Positions 14,698 to 24,849 of a stretch of DNA of 64,000 nt are shown one piece after another (position 1 is the first letter of the stretch; each line of letters starts with the position of its first letter). The notes beneath the pieces were generated by a model. It saw only the letters and a list, made by a program, of their open reading frames with translations, was not told the origin of the DNA and made no database searches. A program made the translations under genes and the position numbers. Source of the DNA: an uncultured Candidatus Saccharibacteria bacterium (lineage in GTDB: Bacteria; Patescibacteriota; Minisyncoccia; Phycocordibacterales; UBA2100); contig CAYNRJ010000001.1 in NCBI GenBank assembly GCA_964399865.1, positions 202,050 to 266,049 on the forward strand, in the 5' to 3' direction.

Positions 14698-15568
14698 GCA
14701 ACCAAAATTCGCCTTTTTCGGCACGCCGCATCTTGCGGCAGTATTCCTCGATGAATTGGAAAAATCAGGACTTACCCCTTCACTTGTAGTAACGACACCA
14801 GACCGGAAACAAGGACGCGGACTAGAGCTTACCGCGCCGCCCGTAAAGAAGTGGGCGGTGGAAAGGAACGTCGATGTGCTTCAGATTGAAACGTGGGATG
14901 AGAGCGCAATAGAAGAGTTGAGGTCCGCGAGTGCGAAAAAAGACATCGATGTATTCGTCGTAATTTACTACGGAAAAATCCTCTCCAAAACGATCTTGGA
15001 TATACCGAAGCGTGGCACATTGAACATTCACTTCTCGTTACTCCCCCGTTGGCGCGGCACTTCTCCTGTCCGCGCGGCGATCTTGAATGATGATCGTGAA
15101 GTTGGTACTTCGATTATCCTTCTCGATGAGAAAATTGATCACGGACCTGTGGTGGCTCAGAAGAAAGTAGCTGTTGAAGAGTGGCCGCCTTCTGCGATAG
15201 ATCTGGAATCCAAGATGACCTACGAGAGCGCGCAGCTTCTCGTCAATATCCTACCGAGCTGGGTACAGGGAGATATCGAGGCTCGTGAGCAGAACCATGA
15301 CCTTGCAACACAGTGCCCTACTCTTGAAAAAGATGATGGTCTCATTTCACTTAAGGATGACGCGTATAAGAATCTCCTCAAAATACGAGCATTTGATACG
15401 ACGATTGGCACTCACGCATTCTTCGAGCGCGATGGGAAAAGAGTCCGCGTTAAGATTCTCGACGCATATCTTGCAAACGGTGCACTGCAGATCGAAGCGG
15501 TGAAGCCCGAAGGTAAACGGGAAATGAAATATGAGGAGTTTTTACGATCAGGAGTACGGCCATTGTAG
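14690..15568 (+). CDS. fmt: methionyl-tRNA formyltransferase
   Basis: Formyltransferase N-domain (HFSLLPRWRG) plus a C-terminal tRNA-binding domain. It overlaps the def stop, and its start is the internal MNKQPKF. Confidence 0.9.
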   Translation: MNKQPKFAFFGTPHLAAVFLDELEKSGLTPSLVVTTPDRKQGRGLELTAPPVKKWAVERNVDVLQIETWDESAIEELRSASAKKDIDVFVVIYYGKILSKTILDIPKRGTLNIHFSLLPRWRGTSPVRAAILNDDREVGTSIILLDEKIDHGPVVAQKKVAVEEWPPSAIDLESKMTYESAQLLVNILPSWVQGDIEAREQNHDLATQCPTLEKDDGLISLKDDAYKNLLKIRAFDTTIGTHAFFERDGKRVRVKILDAYLANGALQIEAVKPEGKREMKYEEFLRSGVRPL

Positions 15569-15599
15569 CGTCCTTGCCTCTATAGAGCGGTGTGTATAG

Positions 15600-15856
15600 A
15601 CTGGAAAAAGATAAGAACACCGGCGTGGTGTGGTGAGGCCACCCAGCCGGCTGTGCGGCAAGTGTGAGCTTGAGCTGGTATTCATGTCTCTATCGCGCCC
15701 GGAGATGTGGAAATTAGTTCGCCCCTACCGCAAACGACGAGGGTCCGTCTCGTTGCCCGGACATCTTGTCGTTCAAGCAGTACGGCGGCGGTTGCTAAGT
15801 CGCTTCCGCCGCCGTACACCTTCATAACCGCCCCTTTCGGCGGTTATACTTTTTTA
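15600..15856 (+). ncRNA. candidate structured GC-rich RNA or 3' UTR element ending at an intrinsic terminator
   Basis: About 250 nt of GC-rich non-coding sequence between fmt and hpf, with multiple internal complementarities. It ends with hairpin ATAACCGCC-CCTTTC-GGCGGTTAT plus ACTTTTTTAA at 15824-15856. No known RNA family was recognised. Confidence 0.25.
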
Positions 15857-16216
15857 ACTTCTCCAAAGAAGATTCTTTATACGCGCACCAACACGACGAG
15901 TGAGACGTAGACCGCGCTGTTTATTCTTGCGCAGCTGACGCTCCACTTCCGCCCTCGCATCATCAATTGCAGCGTTAATACTTTCAGAATTGTTTGTGGC
16001 ACGGACTGGATCCTGACCTGGGACAATCACCTGTATCTCGGCAAACCATAAATTCTTTCCGTGACGCGCTTTCCCTGCCGCACGGCCAAGCTCTACTTCA
16101 AAACGAACGTGCGGCGCTCCCCCAAGGAGTTTCTCAATTGCTACTAATCTTGTTTCTAAATAGTTTCTAGCTTCTTCAGTGAGCTCATAATCCGTTGCTT
16201 TGATGCGTATATCCAT
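15854..16216 (-). CDS. hpf: ribosome hibernation promoting factor (RaiA/HPF family)
   Basis: 120 aa; the YELTEEARNYLETRL N-terminus and beta-alpha-beta fold are typical of sigma-54 modulation protein/HPF. Confidence 0.88.
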   Translation of the reverse strand: MDIRIKATDYELTEEARNYLETRLVAIEKLLGGAPHVRFEVELGRAAGKARHGKNLWFAEIQVIVPGQDPVRATNNSESINAAIDDARAEVERQLRKNKQRGLRLTRRVGARIKNLLWRS

Positions 16217-16220
16217 ATTT

Positions 16221-16508
16221 TTATTTTATCACACGAAGTACTTTACTCCCCTTCTGGTGACCCGAGATAATTCGTACCGAACTAGGAGGAACATAGTAGT
16301 GACGCGCTATTAAGACTCGCAATCGATCATTCGCCGCATTATCCTCGGCCTTCTCCTTCACATGCACGACAAACTCGTCTCTTACCGCCTTTCCAAAATC
16401 TGATTTACCAGGATTAACACCCTTCGCAGTCTGGACCACACTTTCTCTTCTTGCTCCGGCATTTACTTTGGCTCGAATTAACATGACTTTTTCAAGTATC
16501 GGATACAC
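16221..16508 (-). CDS. DUF167 (YggU-like) protein
   Basis: The C-terminal region NDRLRVLIARHYYVPPSSVRIISGHQKGSKV matches the DUF167 consensus. The start may be the internal Met at 16484. Confidence 0.65.
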   Translation of the reverse strand: MYPILEKVMLIRAKVNAGARRESVVQTAKGVNPGKSDFGKAVRDEFVVHVKEKAEDNAANDRLRVLIARHYYVPPSSVRIISGHQKGSKVLRVIK

Positions 16509-16522
16509 TGATGAAGTTCTAG

Positions 16523-18187
16523 TTAATGAGGAGAATCCCTACGAGAATGATTACGGCTCCAATGCCTACCATGAGGAGTGCAGTCCACATGTTGGAAATT
16601 ATAGCATTCTTGGCTATACTGCGACCGATTCCCCGGTAGCGCAGCGGTAGCGCAGCTCGCTGTTAACGAGTTGGTCGTAGGTTCGAATCCTACCCGGGGA
16701 GCCCAGAGTTGGAGAGAGCCCGAAGAATCGGGATTTTGGCGCGCGGCGCGAAGCGCCGCGTAGGGAGGATGCGCCGTGCCGGAGAGTTTTTGATTTGTGA
16801 GTTGCAGGTTCGAGCCGAAGATTTTTTGAATTGCGGATTTTTTGGCGGGGAGAGAGGGGTCATTTTGGGTTTGGGCTAGGCTTTGCGCCTCGTGTATCCA
16901 CGAGCGCATAGGTTCGAGCCACGCACGGCCGTCGCGCTCCAAACGGGCTGCGTGCTCGCTTAAAGTCCGCTTGTCGGACATCAGCGCGCGACGCTTCGCC
17001 AAGTATGCGTCGCGCTCGATATCCTGCGCGATGTAGAGGTCTGTGAGGCGGTCAAGTTTGCGCTCGATGCTGTGCATCTGTTCGCGCAAGTCGCCGACCG
17101 CCTGCGAACTCGTGCGCCCTACGTCGCGCTCGTCCTCTTGCATACGACGCTCGAAATACTGCGCCCATTTGGGCGGCATGACAAAGAGTGCGAGGAGGTC
17201 GGAAACATCGGCGGCGAGCGCTTCTTCGCGGACGTAAGACTGCGAACAGCGTGCCGCCGACTTTTTCGTACAGCGATAGTAGGTGTAGCGGTGAGTATTG
17301 CCATTCTTTTGATGCTTCGTGCGCACTTCGGCCGTTATCGCCATCCCACACTCGCCGCAACGCAACACGCCGCAAAGCGCTTGCGGCTGTGTCGTGGTGG
17401 CCTGCGGGTGGCCGCGCTCGGCCATGACCTTTTGCACTTTGTCGAACAGGCGCTTATCCACGATGGGCGTATGTCGCCCCTCGTATAATTCGCCGCCATA
17501 GAGAAAATGGCCATAGTAAAAAGGATTGGCGAGAATGAAGCGCACGCGGTCGTTGTGTATGCGATTGCCGAACAAACTCCGCACGCCGTTGTCGTATAGA
17601 AACTGCCCGATATCTTCGAGGCGCGAATTGCCTCTGGCGTACAAATCAAAGGCGGCGCGGATTACTTTCGATTTCTTGCGGTCGAGCGTGATGCTCTTTG
17701 TGCGCGGGTCGTTGCGATACCCCGCCGGAGCCGTTCCGGGGAAATCGCCGCGCCGCGCTTTGGCGCGCAATCCTCGCGCAGTGTTGGCCGAAAGTTCACG
17801 TATGAATTGATTCGCCATCCCAAACTCTACCGACATCATCAGTACGTTGTCAGCGGGATAGTACGCGCGGTCGTGGGTTTGGATATGTGATATGACGCCG
17901 CTCTGCAAAAGCCACTGTATCTGGCCGCCGTCCACGGGATTGCGCGCGAGGCGGTCGATTTTCCAACACACAATGCCCTGCGCCTCGCCTTTCTGTACCC
18001 GCGCCATCATCTCGTTGAACACGGGACGGCCCGGCTGTTTCGCCGAGCGCTTTTCTACAAACTCCTCGGCAATTTCGAGCCCCTCCCGCCGCGCGAGTGT
18101 GCGCAATTCCGACAACTGCGCCTCGATAGAGAGCACCTGCTTGTCCTCGACATCGGTACTTTTGCGGGCGTAGAGAAAGAAACGCAT
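16523..18187 (-). CDS. large serine recombinase (resolvase N-domain + recombinase domain + zinc ribbon + coiled coil)
   Basis: N-terminus YARKST...S catalytic region, zinc-ribbon motif CGECG...YYRC, and a coiled-coil tail; high GC. The last ~55 codons run antisense through tRNA-Asn, so the true C-terminus probably lies upstream of 16701. Confidence 0.88.
   Translation of the reverse strand: MRFFLYARKSTDVEDKQVLSIEAQLSELRTLARREGLEIAEEFVEKRSAKQPGRPVFNEMMARVQKGEAQGIVCWKIDRLARNPVDGGQIQWLLQSGVISHIQTHDRAYYPADNVLMMSVEFGMANQFIRELSANTARGLRAKARRGDFPGTAPAGYRNDPRTKSITLDRKKSKVIRAAFDLYARGNSRLEDIGQFLYDNGVRSLFGNRIHNDRVRFILANPFYYGHFLYGGELYEGRHTPIVDKRLFDKVQKVMAERGHPQATTTQPQALCGVLRCGECGMAITAEVRTKHQKNGNTHRYTYYRCTKKSAARCSQSYVREEALAADVSDLLALFVMPPKWAQYFERRMQEDERDVGRTSSQAVGDLREQMHSIERKLDRLTDLYIAQDIERDAYLAKRRALMSDKRTLSEHAARLERDGRAWLEPMRSWIHEAQSLAQTQNDPSLPAKKSAIQKIFGSNLQLTNQKLSGTAHPPYAALRAARQNPDSSGSLQLWAPRVGFEPTTNSLTASCATAALPGNRSQYSQECYNFQHVDCTPHGRHWSRNHSRRDSPH
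16630..16701 (+). tRNA. tRNA-Asn (anticodon GTT)
   Basis: Manual fold: acceptor TCCCCGG/CCGGGGA (U1:A72), D-arm GCGC/GCGC, anticodon stem GCTCG/CGAGT with loop CTGTTAA, T-arm GTAGG-TTCGAAT-CCTAC, discriminator G. The 3' tail is GCCCA (imperfect CCA). Confidence 0.85.
16685..16703. repeat. attL core: 19-bp GAATCCTACCCGGGGAGCC at the tRNA-Asn 3' end
   Basis: An exact 19-bp direct repeat of 23520-23538. Confidence 0.75.
16702..16876. repeat. repeat A (~175 bp), inverted copy at 19425-19599
   Basis: Reverse complement of 16702-16800 matches 19500-19599 with a few mismatches. The match continues more loosely to ~16876 and 19425. Confidence 0.7.
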
Positions 18188-18221
18188 AAGTTGTATTATA
18201 CAGTCGTCCGAGATTCAAATT

Positions 18222-19031
18222 ATGAGAACTATCCGCATATATTCAGACGAGAGCAGGCACAAAAACGAGCGCTTTTTGCTCCTTGCCGGACTATGGGTAC
18301 CGGAAGAAAATGTGCAGGTTGTGGAGGATGGGATACGAGCACTCCGCAAAAAGCATGGATATACAAACTCGGCGGGCAAGAAGATAGATTTTCTCGGCGA
18401 ATTCAAATGGACGAAAGCATCCGACAAGTACCTGCCAGTCTATAAAGAATTGGTTGATTTGTTTTTTGATTGGACTAACGAAGACGTGCTGCGCTCGTGC
18501 ACAATGCTTGTGGATACGCATGATCCGATGGTAGTAGAACACAGCAACATCAAGAAGGAGGGGTACTTCAAACTACTCTACCAACTCTACTACCACAACT
18601 CGCATATTCCTGCGATATATAAAATCTTTCCCGACCGCATTACTAATCCGACCCAGCGGAGAGTCAACTTCGAGACGCTCGACAAGTGCCTAGAGGTAGC
18701 ATTTCATAAGAAATTTACCCCGCTGCTTAATCCAGCTGATCGCCCTGGCATTCGTGGCTTTGTAAACAACATTACCCCGACCGACTCCAAGATGACGCCG
18801 TTCATCCAGCTACTCGACGTGATTATGGGAGCTCTTGGTTATTTACAAAACGGGTTATTTAGAAAGCCGGACGCGAAGAAAGCGAAGGTTGAGCTGATGA
18901 AGTATATCTTCGAAAAAATTGCCCTCTCGGGAGCGATAAAAATATCAGGGAAATCCTACTATGTTGCAAAGTCTACCAAGTTTAATATTTGGCTCTTTCG
19001 TCCGAGAAACAAAAAAGGCCCTCAAAAATGA
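18222..19031 (+). CDS. hypothetical protein, DUF3800-like (IRIYSDES N-terminal motif)
   Basis: 269-aa ORF divergent from the recombinase gene with a 35-bp spacer. The N-terminal I-Y-x-DES motif resembles DUF3800. Family assignment is from memory. Confidence 0.55.
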   Translation: MRTIRIYSDESRHKNERFLLLAGLWVPEENVQVVEDGIRALRKKHGYTNSAGKKIDFLGEFKWTKASDKYLPVYKELVDLFFDWTNEDVLRSCTMLVDTHDPMVVEHSNIKKEGYFKLLYQLYYHNSHIPAIYKIFPDRITNPTQRRVNFETLDKCLEVAFHKKFTPLLNPADRPGIRGFVNNITPTDSKMTPFIQLLDVIMGALGYLQNGLFRKPDAKKAKVELMKYIFEKIALSGAIKISGKSYYVAKSTKFNIWLFRPRNKKGPQK

Positions 19032-19214
19032 GAGCCGTTTTTGTGGAGTCCTGGGAGCTGGGTCAGTGCCCGGTGCGACGTAAGTCGCAGGAGACGTCAC
19101 CCAGTAACTCCAAGTTAAAGATACCAGTAATCTGATGAAGAATCAATGATATCCACATTCCTAGAATATCCTTATCTAGCAAGCTAAAAACGAGATTTTT
19201 GTAAAATTGTTAGT

Positions 19215-19256
19215 TGAAATTGGATATGCTGCCTGCAGGCAGCATATCCAATTTCA
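19215..19256. repeat. 42-bp perfect palindrome centred on CTGCAG
   Basis: TGAAATTGGATATGCTGCCTGCAGGCAGCATATCCAATTTCA is fully self-complementary. Confidence 0.85.
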
Positions 19257-19424
19257 TGTGCGGAGTCAATGAAATTAGCACCAAAAATTGCACTCCGAGC
19301 AAGAATTTTGAGGAAATTGAGATCGATGATGTGTTGGAAAACATACGAATACTCTTGAATTATATCAAAAAGCGTAGGGAGTTGCAGTCGCGTGCGCGCA
19401 TGGGTGGGTGGGGCAAGCACGCAT

Positions 19425-19599
19425 GGGTTCTGGGGCCCCTCTCTCCCCGCCAAAAAATCTGCATTTGCATTTCTTCAAAAAATCTTCGGCTTGAATTTGC
19501 ATCCCGCATCAAAAATCTTCCGGCACGGCGCATCCTCTCTACGCGGCGCTTCGCGCCGCGCGCCAAAATCCCGATTCTTCGGGCTCTCTCCAACTCTGG
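19425..19599. repeat. repeat A-prime (inverted copy of 16702-16876)
   Basis: See repeat A; contiguous with IR-L. Confidence 0.7.
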
Positions 19600-19748
19600 G
19601 CTCATCTCTACGAATTCGCTCGAACCTATTTTACTCTGAATTCCTGATGTTCGCGCGCCTTCGGCGCGCTCTCCCTCGCCCCGCCGCTTCTCATGCACTA
19701 TTTATTTTCGCGGGGGTGGGTTCCAAAAAGGAATGGGCGGCGGCGCGA
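19600..19748. repeat. IR-L, ~150-bp inverted repeat (partner 22802-22949)
   Basis: GCTCATCTCTACGAATTCGCTCGAACC...AAAAAGGAATGGGCGGCGG is near-identical to the reverse complement of 22802-22949. Confidence 0.85.
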
Positions 19749-19883
19749 GGGATATTCAAAATAGTATCCAAAGTTATCCACTTTTCAGAACTGTTCACTC
19801 TCGAGAACAAGATATACAATAAGCGTCCGTCTGAGTACCTCCACGTCTTTGCAGCCGGATTTATAGGCTTAATAAGGAAAAGT

Positions 19884-20255
19884 ATGGAATTACCACAAAA
19901 AGTCGTGGACATTCTTTTGAATGCGGACAGCAAAGCGCTCGCAACCACGGGACCGGAGGGACTCAATGTTGTCCCGGTCTCAACCATCACTCTCGTCGAT
20001 GATAAAATATGGCTCATGAATTACTTCTTTAAAAAAACACTTGCGAACATTCTCGCCGAGCCTTCCGTGTCGCTCGTCGGTTGGAAGGGATTTGAGGGAT
20101 ACCAAATACAAGGGCGCGTGGAGTACTGCGACAAAGGCGCTACATTCGAAGAGGCGCGGCAGTGGGTTAAAGAGCGACTTCCGGACCGGGTCTTGAAAGG
20201 ACTTCTCATCATGACGCCGCAGAACGTACACGACGTCTCTCCTACCGCTGCCTAA
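19884..20255 (+). CDS. PNPOx-like FMN-binding split-barrel protein (pyridoxamine 5'-phosphate oxidase family)
   Basis: 123 aa from ATG at 19884 with an AAGGAAA Shine-Dalgarno sequence. The upstream part of ORF 19392-20255 is translated repeat sequence and is rejected. Confidence 0.7.
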   Translation: MELPQKVVDILLNADSKALATTGPEGLNVVPVSTITLVDDKIWLMNYFFKKTLANILAEPSVSLVGWKGFEGYQIQGRVEYCDKGATFEEARQWVKERLPDRVLKGLLIMTPQNVHDVSPTAA

Positions 20256-20261
20256 GTAATT

Positions 20262-20963
20262 ATGAATGCACAGCTCCACGAATACCAAGTGCTTGCTAAG
20301 CGGCTCGAGACGCCAAGTACCTCTACACTAAAACTGCGGCGGCTTAATGGCTCTATTCCAAAATTCCGTGCAGGTCAATACATCACAGTCTACTTTCCCG
20401 ACATTGACCCCGTGCTTGGCAAAGAGTATACGATCTCAAGTTCACCGAGAGAAGAGGAATTCAACATTACCGTCAAAGCAATCGGTAGATACTCGAAGCG
20501 GTTGTGTTCGCTCAATGCAGGTGACACGTTTCTTGCTTCAGGGGCACAGGGGCGTTTCTACCCAGAAGATACTCATTCTGTCTGCATGATAGCAGGCGGT
20601 ATGGGCGTAACACCGTTCCGGAGCATCATACTTGAAACGACGCGGAGTAAATGCCGCGGCGATATACAGCTCTTGTATAGTGGACGATATTCCTTCGACA
20701 TGCCCTTTAGCGAAGAACTCTACCGCATTTCTTGCAAACTACCTTCATTTAAATTTAGGCGATTTGTTACGCGAGACGCAGCGATTCCAAGGGGCGCAAA
20801 GAGCCATCGAATGCGCGCCGAGGATGTTCTCGATACAAAAGAGAGTACAATGTCGCGCGAATACCTTATCAGTGGCTCTCTCGCGTTCGTCTGTGATGTA
20901 AAAGGATTGTTATCTTCTATCTCTGTACCCTCGGAGCGTATTCTTACAGAAGTATGTTTCTAA
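20262..20963 (+). CDS. ferredoxin-NADP reductase-like FAD/NAD(P)H-binding oxidoreductase
   Basis: FAD-binding RAGQYITV-like motif and NAD(P)-binding GGMGVTP motif; 233 aa. Overlaps the nirK start by 10 nt. Confidence 0.7.
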   Translation: MNAQLHEYQVLAKRLETPSTSTLKLRRLNGSIPKFRAGQYITVYFPDIDPVLGKEYTISSSPREEEFNITVKAIGRYSKRLCSLNAGDTFLASGAQGRFYPEDTHSVCMIAGGMGVTPFRSIILETTRSKCRGDIQLLYSGRYSFDMPFSEELYRISCKLPSFKFRRFVTRDAAIPRGAKSHRMRAEDVLDTKESTMSREYLISGSLAFVCDVKGLLSSISVPSERILTEVCF

Positions 20964-22312
20964 AAATCAGTACAGGTGTTGCCGTGTTTGCTATCTTAGG
21001 TATGGGTGTCGTAATTTCGTATTTTGGACTTGAAAATCTCATTACCTTCTTCCCTTTCATCTACTATTCAGTGATACAGGGCATTGCTATCACGGTTGCA
21101 GTGGTCGCCCTTTCCTTTTTTGTGCTTCGCGTTGTGTACCGCATGCACTCGAAACTCCTCGCAATCACGCTTGGCGTGATTGTTGTAGCGGGACTTCTCT
21201 ATATGTGGGCGGACAAAACGTACTCCCCGCACTTTGCGATGCCAGCTTTTATGCACGTCTATCATCCGGGAGGACACCTCCCCGATTTGCCGTTCAAGAA
21301 TGTCGTCACATTCATCAAAAACTTCAGGAATTTCGAGTATGTAGACGATATCGGCGCAGACCCGAACGATGTGCCGCCGCCAATTACCCGCAATTGGAGC
21401 GAGACAGTAAAGATTTCTTTCACCGCGCAAGAAGTGATTGCAGAGGTTGCAGAAGGTGTGTATTTCAACTACTGGACGTTTAATAAGCAAGTGCCGGGTC
21501 CAATGCTTCGAGTGCGCGAAGGTGACACTATAGAAATGACTATCACCAACCATCCGTCAAGCCTCCATCCGCATAATATCGACCTTCACGCAGTTACTGG
21601 TCCTGGAGGTGGCGCGACACTTTCGCGTGTCGAGCCGGGAGAAACAAAGGGGTTCACGTGGAAAGCGCTTCAGCCTGGTCTCTACATTTACCATTGCGCG
21701 ACGCCAAATGTGAGCACACATAACTCGCATGGGCAGTATGGTCTCATTCTTGTTGAGCCGAAGGAAGGACTTCCGCCTGTTGATAAAGAATTTTACCTTG
21801 TGCAGGGAGAACTCTACACGAAAGGTGCGATCGGAAAGAAGGGACTTACCATATTCGACGGCAATGCGCTTCTCGACGGGCTGCCGAACTACGTGACGTT
21901 CAACGGTCGTATTGAAACAGATGGCAATCCCCGCATGAAAGTGAATACGGGAGACAAAGTGCGCATTTTCGTCGGCAACGGCGGCGTCAATCTCATCTCT
22001 AGTTTCCACCCCATCGGCGAGATATGGGACTCCGTGTATCCGGAGGGCGGCATTGGCGGTCCTATAAACAAAAATATCCAAACGACCGCAGTTCTTCCGG
22101 GTGGAGCAAGTATTGTTGAATTTGTTGCGGAAGTGCCGGGAAACATTGTACTTGTTGACCACGCGCTTGCTCGCATGAACAAAGGAGCATGGGCAATTAT
22201 TGAAGTTGAGGGTAGTCCTCGTCCGGATATCTATGCGCCAACCGACGGGTTTGAGGGGTCTTCAGAATCGTATGGTACTGAAGCGACGCACGAAAAATCG
22301 CATCAGAAATAG
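20954..22312 (+). CDS. nirK: copper-containing nitrite reductase (NirK-type two-domain cupredoxin) with N-terminal 3-TM anchor
   Basis: HNIDLHAVTG (type-2 Cu His pair), YIYHCATP...H (type-1 Cu Cys/His) and C-terminal VDHALARM (His306-like). About 100 N-terminal residues form three hydrophobic helices. Confidence 0.85.
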   Translation: MFLKISTGVAVFAILGMGVVISYFGLENLITFFPFIYYSVIQGIAITVAVVALSFFVLRVVYRMHSKLLAITLGVIVVAGLLYMWADKTYSPHFAMPAFMHVYHPGGHLPDLPFKNVVTFIKNFRNFEYVDDIGADPNDVPPPITRNWSETVKISFTAQEVIAEVAEGVYFNYWTFNKQVPGPMLRVREGDTIEMTITNHPSSLHPHNIDLHAVTGPGGGATLSRVEPGETKGFTWKALQPGLYIYHCATPNVSTHNSHGQYGLILVEPKEGLPPVDKEFYLVQGELYTKGAIGKKGLTIFDGNALLDGLPNYVTFNGRIETDGNPRMKVNTGDKVRIFVGNGGVNLISSFHPIGEIWDSVYPEGGIGGPINKNIQTTAVLPGGASIVEFVAEVPGNIVLVDHALARMNKGAWAIIEVEGSPRPDIYAPTDGFEGSSESYGTEATHEKSHQK

Positions 22313-22801
22313 GGAGCCCGCCGCGAATCCTCTCTGCCTCTCGCGGCGGTTTGTGCGCGCACGGGACGGGTGGGGCAAGCACAAGGCCAGACAGAGCCGA
22401 GGTGCATTTCCGCTAGGGCGTCCACGCCCTTGGATGAGCGCCGCCGTTCTCTTGCAAAACAGAATCAAGAATCTTGAGAAAGACGCGGACATGAAAACGA
22501 GGATGGGGGTTGGCGACGACGGTTGGCCGAGCCCTGCCCAGCTCTGCTGGGTGCGCCGCGAAGCGGACGCACGAGGCGAGGAGGAGCTGGGGGGAGGAAC
22601 CCTTTCTCCCCCCAAACAGATGCGTGCCCGAGCCAGCCGCCCGCAGGCGGCACTGGTGAGGAAAAGCACGCTACCTAGACATCTAGGCGCGAGTAGCCCT
22701 AGCGGAAATGTCCGAGGCGGATGCCGAGGATGGACCCCATGGGCTGGACGCATACCATGGCGGTATGAACGAAGGCACCATATTGGATTTGTATTTACCT
22801 C

Positions 22802-22949
22802 GCCCCGCCGCCCATTCCTTTTTGGAACCCACCCCCGCGAAAATAAATAGTGCATGAGAAGCGGCGGGGCGAGGGAGAGCGCGCCGAAGGCGCGCGAACA
22901 TCAGGAATTCAGAGTAAAATAGGTTCGAGCGAATTCGTAGAGATGAGCT
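22802..22949. repeat. IR-R (inverted copy of IR-L)
   Basis: See IR-L. Confidence 0.85.
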
Positions 22950-22983
22950 GACAAGGTTTGAAAAAAGTGTCATAGTTTCTCTT

Positions 22984-23415
22984 ATGTCGCAGAGGTTTGT
23001 TACGCTGATAATTAACTACTCGGCACTATATATTCCAATAGTCGGAGTCCTTCTGTTTTCAGAGCAAGGAAATTTCATACTTATATTCTCAATTTGCTAT
23101 TGGGCAATAATGCTTCCGATGTTCTTGCTGGATTATTTCGGGTCCAGCATCAAACTTGCTGAGGATAGGCTAATTGGCCATTTTTATTTCCTCTTTAAGG
23201 TTTCTGTGCCGTTGGACAAGATTATTTCTATTGAGAATGGCTACGCGCCAGGCATATTGGGGAGGCCAGCGAGCGTCGTTGTTAAGTATCGCAAAGGATC
23301 TAAGGAGGTGCGCTGGGATATGCTACGAGAGGATTACACCGACGAAGCGCTGAGAGATTTTTTAGGGCGACTAGCAACAAAGCGAACGGATCTACACATA
23401 CCTAATCTTACATAA
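22984..23415 (+). CDS. hypothetical membrane protein
   Basis: 143 aa with two N-terminal TM helices; AT-rich, unlike the adjacent IR. Confidence 0.4.
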   Translation: MSQRFVTLIINYSALYIPIVGVLLFSEQGNFILIFSICYWAIMLPMFLLDYFGSSIKLAEDRLIGHFYFLFKVSVPLDKIISIENGYAPGILGRPASVVVKYRKGSKEVRWDMLREDYTDEALRDFLGRLATKRTDLHIPNLT

Positions 23416-23519
23416 TTCAGTTCCAATCTCGTCCCATACGCGGAGCTTCAAAATATACAGACGTGCCGAATGGGACGTTTTGCATTTTTGACCCCGAGTG
23501 GATTCAAATCATTGTGTGA

Positions 23520-23538
23520 GAATCCTACCCGGGGAGCC
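23520..23538. repeat. attR core: displaced ancestral tRNA-Asn 3' end (encodes ...CCGGGGAGCCA)
   Basis: Exact 19-bp repeat of 16685-16703. Here it is followed by A, completing CCA, and then by a terminator. Confidence 0.75.
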
Positions 23539-23546
23539 ATCAAAAT

Positions 23547-23572
23547 GACCTTGTTTTGCAAGGTCTTTTTTG
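23547..23572 (+). terminator. intrinsic terminator following the displaced tRNA-Asn 3' end
   Basis: GACCTTG-TTTTG-CAAGGTC followed by TTTTTTG. Confidence 0.6.
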
Positions 23573-23595
23573 TATGACCCTGATAGGGTTCGGAA

Positions 23596-24132
23596 CTACA
23601 TCAATACATCCAAAACTTTTTTTATGTTTTTTTCTCGTGTCGCTTCCTTCTTAGAATTGAGCAAAGTCTCTAAATACATCCTCTTATTACTTCTACTGAG
23701 AGCTTCCCATTTCTCTTCCAATTTGAGTTTTCGTAACACTATTCTTAAATCTCTTGGCAAAATTAGATTTTCAACTTCATTTAAAGCATCCCACATGCCA
23801 GTCTTTTTTGCGGAAGCAACAACAGCAAGACCAGAAGGTTGCATTTTTCTCTCTTTAACAAGACGCTTGATATTCTCTTTATTTACCCTGCTCCATTTAC
23901 TCTTAGGGTTTCTTGGAGAAATTCGTATCTTTGTCTTAGTATCGTCTACTTTTCCAACCACACTATCAACCCAACCAAAACACAGACAATAATCTACGAT
24001 TGTCTGTTTAGCTAAATCACCTAACTTTAAGCTAGGTTTGTAATACACAAGCCAGATACTTTTATTCTCCTTATGGTTTTTCTGCAACCAATTCCATAAG
24101 TCTTTTTTATTTTTACAGAGCACTTCTTCCAT
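23596..24132 (-). CDS. YdeI/OmpD-associated family protein
   Basis: C-terminal region ISPRNPKSKWSRVNKENIKRL...SRSNKRMYLETLLNSKK matches that family. The start is chosen at the internal MEEVL. Confidence 0.55.
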   Translation of the reverse strand: MEEVLCKNKKDLWNWLQKNHKENKSIWLVYYKPSLKLGDLAKQTIVDYCLCFGWVDSVVGKVDDTKTKIRISPRNPKSKWSRVNKENIKRLVKERKMQPSGLAVVASAKKTGMWDALNEVENLILPRDLRIVLRKLKLEEKWEALSRSNKRMYLETLLNSKKEATREKNIKKVLDVLM

Positions 24133-24297
24133 ATCAGGTATTATATTAAAATTAGTTCTGAAATACAGGATTTGAAAGCATCTCAAAAATCTTGGAAACT
24201 TCTGAATCTCTTTTGATTGCAGTCCAGTTTAAGGTTCTGAACTCGTCCAGCAGTCGGAGCAAAGAGCTAGAACCAGACCAGATGGTAAAATATCCCT

Positions 24298-24492
24298 ATG
24301 CGCATCACATCAGGTTTTAGAAAACTTATGCCTTCCATTTTAGGCGGTGCAGTTGGTATTGCTGCAGTTATCTACGGAGGCAAAGATGATAGCCCGGGAC
24401 TTCAGCTCATTGGACTAGTGATATTTATTGTCTCGATGGTAATTATGATCAAAACGAGACGAAAGATTACCTGTGATATAGAAAGTGAGTAG
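24298..24492 (+). CDS. hypothetical small membrane protein
   Basis: 64 aa, two TM helices. Confidence 0.3.
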   Translation: MRITSGFRKLMPSILGGAVGIAAVIYGGKDDSPGLQLIGLVIFIVSMVIMIKTRRKITCDIESE

Positions 24493-24849
24493 ATGGTTTA
24501 TACTTTTAGTATGTGGATTAGTAGCCGCTACCTGTATTGGGGGTTAGCACTTGCACTGCCTTTTCTCATCGCGAATGCGCTTGTCAGGATGCAAGCACAA
24601 TTTTTCCTTACATTCATTCGTCCACTCGGGGGAACCACGCGCTTTGAGCAATATCTTGTGCTTGCCCTCATCGCCCTCGTGGGTGTCGGTGGTCTGGTCT
24701 CGCTCGTACCAATCTTGAAAGAAAGGCGTTTCTATATAGTGAACGCGATCGTCGGCGTAGCGTTTATCGCCTTCGCGATTTTTGCAGGGCACGGAATCGG
24801 TTACGATTTCTACAACTGCGACATACTCAAGATCCCGAACTGCGATTGA
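24493..24849 (+). CDS. hypothetical membrane protein
   Basis: 118 aa, 3-4 TM helices. Confidence 0.35.
   Translation: MVYTFSMWISSRYLYWGLALALPFLIANALVRMQAQFFLTFIRPLGGTTRFEQYLVLALIALVGVGGLVSLVPILKERRFYIVNAIVGVAFIAFAIFAGHGIGYDFYNCDILKIPNCD

Follow-up and report, generated by a model that had tools for sequence, protein, structure and literature searches.

The stretch of DNA analysed here (the window; 64,000 nucleotides [nt] from a contig of an uncultured Candidatus Saccharibacteria bacterium) contains an element of 6.25 kb (16703-22948) that encodes a large serine recombinase (LSR) and lies at the 3' end of a tRNA-Asn gene. Features are given on the plus strand unless otherwise noted. The tRNA-Asn(GTT) gene (16629-16705) was called by ARAGORN and scores 70.9 bits against the Rfam tRNA family. 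Adjacent to it are the LSR gene (open reading frame [ORF] 16523-18187, minus strand), a divergent DUF3800 gene, and an operon that includes the copper nitrite reductase gene nirK, and these genes are bracketed by two pairs of long inverted repeats (IRs), designated A/A' and IR-L/IR-R. We consider it probable that 16703-22948 is one integrated mobile element that used its own LSR to enter the 3' tip of tRNA-Asn, that the repeats are the arms of its attachment (att) sites, and that a second attP, in inverted orientation, is kept inside the element.

The product of the LSR gene has the domains Resolvase, Recombinase, and Zn_ribbon_recom, with Pfam matches to its translation above the cut-offs (PF00239, 2e-21; PF07508, 3e-14; PF13408, 2e-10). 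Similarity to the NCBIfam models for CcrB, CcrA, and XisF is weak and far below the cut-offs. The ORF reads through repeat A and then antisense across the tRNA gene; the portion beyond 16699 (16523-16698) is read-through, and the functional part of the protein is ~495 residues in length. In a protein search, 4860 of 8000 scored candidates matched at E ≤ 1e-20, with the named matches coming from metagenome-assembled genomes (MAGs) of Paceibacteria, Parcubacteria, and Minisyncoccia. When the window protein was aligned with 17 homologues, the C-terminus encoded by A was found to be kept (...SLPAKKSALQKIFGSNLxLxNQKVSGTAHPLYAALRAAR...), and most of the homologues then read WAPRVGFEPTT, which is the translated antisense T-arm of a tRNA. 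It follows that the LSR gene genuinely ends in repeat A; in this family, the 3' end of the gene lies exactly at the insertion junction, and this layout explains the variable tails of the annotated recombinases as antisense read-through of tRNA genes. No relatives of the LSR were found in a viral contig collection, and a phage origin is therefore unsupported. Among database homologues, the tails (...WAPRVGFEPTT...) vary with the insertion site and lie outside the functional protein, and annotated lengths range from ~500 to 690 amino acids (aa).

The repeats were delimited using a blastn comparison of the 64-kb window with itself. IR-L (19600-19760) and IR-R (22788-22948) form an inverted pair of 161 nt that is 97.5% identical and ungapped (E = 2e-74). 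A (16699-16859) and A' (19436-19603) form a second inverted pair of 170 alignment columns with 86.5% identity and two gaps (E = 8e-54); identity is 96% across the first 96 nt from the junction. Both pairs had been noticed in an earlier reading of the DNA from its letters only (the sequence-only reading), and self-alignment bears them out as long, high-identity similarities, although the ~175 bp given there for A/A' is slightly generous (~165 nt measured). The nirK cassette does lie between IR-L and IR-R, and A' does run straight into IR-L, the two overlapping by 4 nt (GCTC, 19600-19603). Also present are the ~30-bp direct repeat, with copies at 19392-19420 and 22353-22382 and a perfect 15-nt core (GGGTGGGGCAAGCAC), and palindromes within the repeats, as exemplified by GCGCGCCTTCGGCGCGC in IR-L. 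The repeats had further been described as nested, which is incorrect: A to A' and IR-L to IR-R follow one another side by side, in tandem. No extra copies of the A or IR units were found within the window.

These repeats define three junctions. Junction 1 (tRNA-Asn, then A) reads ...GTAGGTTCGAATCCTACCCGGGGAGC|CCAGAGTTGG and has the form B-O-P'; junction 2 (A'/IR-L, the reverse complement of which is IR-R followed by A) reads ...ATAGGTTCGAGCGAATTCGTAGAGATGAGC|CCAGAGTTGG and has the form P-O-P'; junction 3 (IR-R, then flank) reads ...ATAGGTTCGAGCGAATTCGTAGAGATGAGC|TGACAAGG and has the form P-O-B'. Alignment on the repeat boundaries shows that the core GAGC is common to all three junctions, and the crossover must therefore fall within these 4 nt. 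Based on this alignment, junction 1 is best read as attL, junction 2 as a complete attP in inverted orientation, and junction 3 as attR. The B arm of attL would be the tRNA-Asn gene, its core lies at 16699-16702, and its P' arm would be A, the minus strand of which encodes the last ~55 codons of the LSR. In the internal site, the core appears as GCTC (the reverse complement of GAGC, 19600-19603), A' is the inverted copy of the P' arm, and IR-L is the inverted P arm, comprising the reverse complement of AAAATAGGTTCGAGCGAATTCGTAGAGATGAGC and GC-rich hairpins. IR-R, the P arm of attR, ends with the core GAGC (22945-22948) and is followed by the flank TGACAAGG. A' corresponds to the frameshifted 3' end of an LSR gene, a pseudo-end recognizable from 19392, and its pseudo-ORF enters IR-L and ends at a stop after ...QLWAHLYEFARTYFTLNS. 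The internal attP divides the element into segment X (the LSR and DUF3800 genes, with inverted P' arms at the ends) and segment Y (the nirK operon and a structured RNA candidate, with inverted P arms at the ends).

The P arm, at the outer end of IR-L and IR-R, resembles the T-arm and acceptor end of a tRNA. The T-arm box GGTTCGA of tRNA-Asn is 19 nt from the repeat boundary, whereas the P arm has four extra bases between its GGTTCGA box and the core. This displacement is uniform: in all 29 elements that allowed both distances to be measured, the box of the P arm is set exactly 4 bp farther out from the boundary than that of the tRNA. Other LSRs have a similar offset between their attP and attB half-sites.

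The LSR matched more than 580 stretches in species-representative (GTDB) genomes. The relatives compared here are 80 loci from such genomes of Patescibacteria, with LSRs 45-77% identical to the window protein, plus nine further loci of a tRNA-Asn subfamily recovered in a metagenome scan for the attP junction (loci are cited by L numbers). Self-comparison of the 80 loci showed that in 60 of them the final 110-220 nt of the LSR gene recur upstream of that gene as an inverted copy, and in 13 of those 60 a second inverted pair adjoins the copy as IR-L and IR-R do. The three-junction pattern B-O-P', P-O-P', P-O-B' was present in 12 fully resolved relatives, with cores of 3-5 nt (e.g. CAC, CACC, and TACC). 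In different MAGs, the insertions occupy the 3' ends of tRNA genes for at least 11 species (Asn, Gln, Leu, Tyr, Ile, Val, Glu, Ser, Thr, Arg, and Phe) as well as tmRNA. The host-side flanks (B') show no conservation between loci, and recognition therefore seems to rest on the tRNA half. The three-domain recombinase, hybrid att arms with a short core, shifted half-site box, and independent insertions are the features of an LSR integrative element. With respect to sequence, we regard the layout attL, X, inverted attP, Y, attR of a tRNA-targeting LSR element as established, and this layout is a hallmark of the whole LSR family.

The repeats are unlikely to be an assembly artefact, because independent contigs in Logan, recorded in more than one sequencing run, match the window's unique segments at 100% identity, because a 588-kb JGI contig (L097) has the same layout as the window element, and because the full layout (attL, LSR module, inverted attP, cargo, attR) is found in two records titled complete chromosomes (L014 and L073). 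Three Logan contig ends fall inside the inverted repeats (16734, 19714, and 22834) and two fall at 19244, inside a 42-nt palindrome; these breakpoints are the behaviour of k-mer assemblers at true repeats. Many other contigs end 105-140 nt past A', the length of an assembler k-mer inside a repeat. The repeats thus account for the breaking of short-read assemblies at these islands.

The sequence-only reading had suggested, as one possibility, that the cassette between IR-L and IR-R is a non-autonomous unit, and in its fullest form this explanation makes it a separate transposon-like unit, or a miniature inverted-repeat transposable element (MITE), that carries nirK, was moved in trans, and neighbours the recombinase module by chance. 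Terminal repeats of 161 nt at 97.5% identity would suit such a unit; the cargo between the P-side repeats is wholly different among relatives, and modules do recombine, as seen in L005 and L006, which differ only in their LSR-adjacent cargo. We nevertheless find this explanation highly improbable. The marks of a transposon or MITE, target-site duplication together with multiple copies, are absent from the 64-kb window, which has no second copy of the cassette. As candidate transposon ends, IR-L and IR-R were rejected: the pair is flanked at one end by the att core and A' and at the other by host DNA, with no duplication other than the 4-nt core. The inner arm always adjoins A' in the 13 loci that resolve both pairs, and no P-side pair was seen away from an LSR module among all the loci compared, which were chosen by LSR gene or attP junction and are hence a biased sample. 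The outer arm ends at the core where host DNA starts, 12 nt from the next tRNA in L074 and L081, as is expected of the attR of a whole element. Finally, conservative recombination of inverted sites cannot excise a segment.

The arms of the internal site are well maintained in the family. When 43 elements are pooled, the identity between A and A' is 97.5% for nt 1-80 from the core, 94% to 100 nt, and 75-83% to 160 nt, and is at background level (~50%) beyond this. Arms with high A/A' identity within an element differ widely between elements. The P-side repeats of relatives are mostly 97-100% identical and are 106-360 nt long. The A' of the window is close to that of L007, although the recombinase gene of L007 is only ~85% identical in DNA to the window LSR gene; modules have therefore been exchanged between elements.

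A competing history is one of accretion, in which two related LSR elements entered the same tRNA in succession, the second recombinase was lost except for its last 190 nt (A'), and the internal site is a functionless, decaying relic. Several observations are consistent with such a scar. A' is a frameshifted pseudo-3' end with 95% identity to the A' of L007 but only 86.5% to its own A; the B' flanks are unrelated among loci, so that an occupied tRNA would still be targetable; L077 has several direct P-arm-like copies; and an unrelated remnant (22949-23538) already adjoins the element. Serial integration should however leave its internal hybrid sites in direct rather than inverted orientation, and this objection also disposes of the proposal in the sequence-only reading that elements integrated in tandem share terminal repeats. 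Moreover, 60 of 80 loci share this inverted layout, including the hairpin motif at which it ends (the direct repeat described above), despite LSR identities of 45-77%, and a neutral relic would not be expected to have an A' that is 97.5% identical to the true arm over its first 80 nt or P arms that are mostly 97-100% identical. We therefore judge the accretion scar to be unlikely. What stands of the composite island proposed earlier is that the island is modular, that its repeats are recombinase sites, and that the adjacent serine recombinase is the relevant enzyme; a composition from two tandem elements does not stand. Unrecognized in that reading were the identity of A as the 3' coding end of the LSR gene, the complete inverted attP formed by A' and IR-L, and the family-wide recurrence of the layout.

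With respect to orientation, the LSR 3' end adjoins an antisense tRNA in the great majority of loci with a readable flank. It adjoins a P arm, the join that would be present in the predicted circle, only in L028 and L077; the flanks of L010, L021, and L029 have neither a recognizable tRNA nor a clear P arm. Two other loci are rearranged. In L044 (2722-2995), tRNA-Asn adjoins the pseudo-3' end and hairpin motif, and the LSR faces away. In L005 (1535-1860), tRNA-Ala is joined directly to a P'-type pseudo-end and hairpin motif, and the recombinase module sits between facing tRNA-Asn and tRNA-Ala genes, each on a P'-type arm. The L005 arrangement is unobtainable by homologous recombination, which implies that the arm of the internal site has recombined with a second tRNA. 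The joins in L005 and L044 are taken as a sign of recombinase-driven chromosomal rearrangement at tRNA genes. Overall, segment X is nearly always found in one orientation, yet with a pseudo-end that appears to be recombinationally competent.

Segment Y behaves differently. From X through A' and the core to a point 247 nt into the P side, L095 and L098 share 99.86% identity, and it is exactly at this point that they diverge; both continuations are homologous to the cargo of L034, in opposite orientations. This comparison was made by way of the common homologue L034, as the L098 tail and L095 do not overlap directly. Inversion of the segment bounded by the P-side repeats thus takes place over short evolutionary times, and inversion by the LSR or by RecA would fit the sequence equally. 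Of the invertibility that had been proposed for both segments, that of the cargo is thus borne out by L095 and L098, whereas free inversion of the recombinase module is at odds with the position of the LSR 3' end at the tRNA in most readable loci.

These inversions raise the question of whether the locus is a dedicated phase-variation switch, with an LSR that acts mainly as an invertase and flips both segments at high frequency in the manner of Hin or Gin. Repeats do flank the segment with the recombinase gene, L095 and L098 carry their cargo in opposite orientations although they are nearly identical, and rare relatives (L028 and L044) have the other orientation of the LSR module. We consider a dedicated switch to be quite unlikely, however: the LSR 3' end is at the tRNA in most readable loci and the RNA module is outermost in 8 of 10, which indicates a strongly one-sided steady state; elements are found at many tRNAs in different genomes, which indicates that insertion is the main activity; and the sites are of an attP type of 260-500 nt rather than a hix or gix type of 26 nt. 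The Hin and Gin invertases are small serine recombinases with a C-terminal helix-turn-helix, whereas the protein encoded here is an LSR of ~495 residues with recombinase and zinc-ribbon domains. Three further schemes (a single-stranded dumbbell intermediate, recombinase-mediated cassette exchange, and a Golden-Gate-like assembly of X and Y) were rejected, as they predict random orientation or chromosome breakage and the loci show neither.

If the locus is a single element with a spare inverted attP, as we favour, its cycle can be outlined as follows. The LSR would insert the element at the extreme 3' end of tRNA-Asn, with strand exchange in GAGC. Excision by attL x attR recombination would release a circle with X and Y separated by two attP sites (~330 nt each) in inverted orientation, and the internal attP would be active as a second site of recombination. 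Cargo segment Y would be flipped when the LSR or RecA recombines the P-side repeats with one another. In the state seen in the window, the cargo/RNA transcription unit would exit into host DNA; in the flipped state (that of L095), its transcription would pass the internal attP towards the LSR gene in the sense direction, and a flip of the cargo could therefore set LSR expression.

Several points weigh against this reading or parts of it. The inverted copy is absent from the sequence at hand in four evaluable relatives (L020, L053, L063, and L067), and the window A', frameshifted and closer to a foreign copy than to its own A, may in parts simply be decaying. Excision, the circular form, and LSR action at these sites are all deduced from sequence, and gene orientation is the sole ground for the idea of a transcriptional switch. 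Canonical LSRs recombine attP with attB only; an attP/attR or attL/attP flip would be a non-canonical reaction, and RecA acting on repeats of 160-360 nt would lead to identical products. Were the two attP copies used equally for integration, the LSR would be expected to face away from the tRNA in half of the loci, but only a handful depart from the common arrangement. Among the small variable cargo genes, no candidate for a recombination directionality factor was recognized. The strong bias of the LSR towards the tRNA may be due to truncation of the P' arm in the internal site, where only one of the two boxes (see below) is present, or may be caused by selection, e.g. silencing by tRNA read-through. 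No circular contig of the element was recovered.

A bolder reading, which we put forward tentatively and regard as doubtful, is that this LSR family departs from the rule of attP x attB recombination only. The family would exchange half-sites between attL, the internal attP, and attR without a directionality factor, aided by an extended P' arm in the coding sequence with accessory boxes and by the ~400-nt RNA; the outcome would be a self-contained flip-flop in which inversion of the cargo would switch recombinase expression and the live internal attP could capture or rearrange other tRNA loci. If true, this would be a two-site mobile-element design that is undescribed for serine integrases.

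The extended P' arm was identified from codon usage at the end of the LSR gene. The invariant tail motifs WLEP and FGSNL are both encoded by GGCTCGAACC, which is the reverse complement of the P-arm box GGTTCGAGCC. On the plus strand, this gives a GGTTCGAGC box at 16807-16815 (in the codons for FGSNL) and a second GGTTCGAGC box at 16911-16919 (in the codons for WLEP). Both boxes are identical to the P-arm and T-arm box and are ~108 and 212 nt from the core. Their wobble positions are conserved across the family, far more strictly than codon usage would predict. For FGSNL, the GGCTCGAAC wobble positions are fixed as codon GGC in 41 of 43 ORFs (background 0.44) and as codon TCG in 36 of 43 (background 0.17), with codon AAC in the box in 42 of 43 (background 0.47); for WLEP, the GGCTCGAAC wobble codon CTC is found in 39 of 39 (background 0.25), as is codon GAA in the box (39 of 39; background 0.52). 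These fixed synonymous positions indicate that the two T-arm-like boxes are constrained at the DNA level inside the LSR coding sequence, and we infer that they are candidate accessory recombinase-binding sites.

The direct repeat noted above is a hairpin motif with a covarying stem and a nearly invariant G-rich loop (GCGCAYGGGNGGGTGGGGCAA). Copy 1 lies at 19392-19420, and copy 2 (22353-22382) forms the 5' start of the RNA candidate. The motif is known from more than 30 related loci, in which one copy is always just inside A'. Identity of the motif to the window copy is 87-97% across more than 20 elements, the recombinases of which are only 53-87% identical to the window protein. The stem covaries as GUGC/GCAC, AUGC/GCAU, GCCC/GGGC, and GCGU/ACGC. 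IR-R contains a long hairpin with a C-rich loop, CCCACCCCC (22829-22838), to which the G-rich loop of the motif is complementary.

Copy 2 opens a GC-rich region of ~400 nt (22350-22760) that was recognized by its conservation and by RNAalifold and is a structured RNA candidate belonging to the element's right end. Homologues were found in L010 (5193-5626), L012, L013 (6372-6739), L025 (3423-3828), L028 (8753-9200), L037 (1532-1932), L040, L091, and L095 (1464-1893), always with the 3' end towards the P arm. RNAalifold analysis of six sequences predicts 75 pairs, 23 of which have compensatory changes, and a long-range helix between 22405-22419 and 22696-22710; the pattern of G-U versus A-C favours the plus strand. 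The module is at the outer arm in 8 of the 10 loci in which it was detected; it is at the inner arm in L095, and in L028 it could not be placed, as the contig ends. The only Rfam family found in 15500-24500 at E ≤ 1 was tRNA, with no match to the GC-rich spacer or the hairpin motif. The possibility that the spacer (22383-22787) is a decayed piece of a recombinase gene was rejected, as a tblastn search with the LSR over 19030-23600 matched the pseudo-3' end in A' but nothing in this spacer.

The cargo of the element is found in both segments. In segment X, Pfam identifies the divergent gene next to the LSR (18222-19031) as DUF3800; close relatives have other genes in its place, and minimal relatives have the LSR alone. 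The operon in segment Y (19884-22312) encodes, by Pfam, a PNPOx-like protein (19884-20255), an FNR-like reductase (20262-20963), and the copper nitrite reductase NirK (20954-22312). The identification of NirK is supported by its score of 310.9 bits against the NCBIfam equivalog TIGR02376 (cut-off, 296.3) and by matches to solved NirK structures at ~1e-97, including PDB 2zoo (7e-98). On this layout, nirK came into the host genome as mobile cargo. The genomes of L005 and L006 are 99.98% identical from the LSR start onward, but unrelated cargo genes lie between the LSR start codon and the hairpin motif in the two loci (L005, 1857-2864; L006, 403-1993), a difference that looks like precise cassette replacement.

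The window element has much in common with canonical LSR elements (phiC31, Bxb1, the A118/LI integrase, SPbeta SprA, SCCmec Ccr, and XisF). Common to both are the three-domain recombinase architecture, an attL and attR that share only a short core (3-5 nt in this family) and no long duplication, and a distal recognition box that is farther out in attP than in the attB half-site (by 4 bp here). In the LI integrase, the distal box is offset by about half a helical turn. In contrast to those elements, the family described here keeps a second, complete attP inside the element in inverted orientation; its P' arm is the 3' coding end of its own LSR gene, at least 100 nt long and with extra T-arm-like boxes; it targets tRNA 3' ends generically, across many different tRNAs, and its half-site on the host side is not conserved; and no directionality factor is evident. 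LSRs are prized for genome engineering for their short sites and one-way reaction, and this abundant family is unusual among them in targeting generic tRNA 3' ends, in having an att site that is partly in its own coding sequence and a spare inverted attP, and in that a conserved RNA can adjoin the site. If functional, the internal site would be a natural case of recombinase-controlled cargo inversion or self-regulation, and the element would be able to rearrange the streamlined chromosomes of Patescibacteria at tRNA genes.

Other systems offer partial parallels. If the element excises, it would resemble the yeast 2-micron plasmid, in which two unique segments lie between long inverted repeats that hold the targets of the plasmid's own recombinase and one segment flips, as it does here between near-identical relatives. 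The 2-micron recombinase, Flp, is a tyrosine recombinase that acts on two identical FRT sites inside 599-bp inverted repeats, and the plasmid replicates. In contrast, pairing of two attP sites would not be expected of the LSR, the element has no evident replication function, and the circle is a prediction only. In the tripartite integrative and conjugative elements (ICEs) of Mesorhizobium, inverted att sites likewise permit elements to be split and rejoined by rearrangement, and L005 looks like such a split state. These ICEs are large conjugative elements with three tyrosine integrases and three sets of sites, whereas the window element is 6 kb in length and has a single serine recombinase. 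The serine invertase switches (Hin/hix, Gin/gix, Cin, and Pin) also combine a serine recombinase with a repeat-bounded segment that is found in either orientation. Serine invertases are small, use 26-nt sites with an enhancer and Fis, and never integrate; the system described here has an LSR, attP-type sites, and one predominant orientation. The tycheposons of Prochlorococcus are, like the window element, small modular cargo elements of streamlined genomes that are inserted at tRNA or tmRNA genes; they have direct partial-tRNA repeats at their flanks and mostly tyrosine recombinases, a minority encoding an LSR, and the text that describes them mentions no internal inverted attachment site (bioRxiv 10.1101/2020.12.28.424599). 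In the literature searched, there was no description of an internal inverted attP, of att boxes within a recombinase coding sequence, or of this Patescibacteria family.

Beyond attR, the stretch 22949-23538 lies outside the LSR element and contains a 143-aa ORF (22984-23415) for which no family match was found. Its last 19 nt (23520-23538), 570 nt past attR, perfectly repeat the tRNA-Asn 3' end in direct orientation, CCA included, and are followed by a hairpin and a run of T. This repeat was rejected as the outer limit of the island, as IR-R ends at the common core and relatives place attR there. In 27 related loci, no comparably long direct copy of a tRNA end was found, only short, chance-like matches and the P-arm-like repeats of L077. 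The stretch is probably the remnant of an older, degraded island at the same tRNA, with the 19-nt copy being the displaced original tRNA end.

Some relatives show further peculiarities. In L008 (~3890), L011 (~6430), and L014 and L015 (~11500), the LSR adjoins only the 3' half of a tRNA, followed by unrelated sequence with a shared GTGGACTATATCATC motif. ARAGORN called no tRNA at these four flanks, which may be split or intron-containing tRNA genes, or remnants. L077 (2653-12532) has at least five direct P-arm-like repeat copies of 28-100 nt over the 10 kb surrounding its LSR gene, in a pattern like that of a cassette array. In L012 (1440-7906), L034 (1238-7643), and L095 (2404-8234), the cargo includes pairs of genes of 1000-1100 aa that are unlike the nirK operon and, judged by size, may be of a defence type. 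The AT-rich spacer of segment X in the window contains the 42-nt palindrome (19215-19256, without strand), which is perfect and loopless (21+21); it is kept in L090 (4535-4576; 95% identity to the window copy) and could be an operator or origin.

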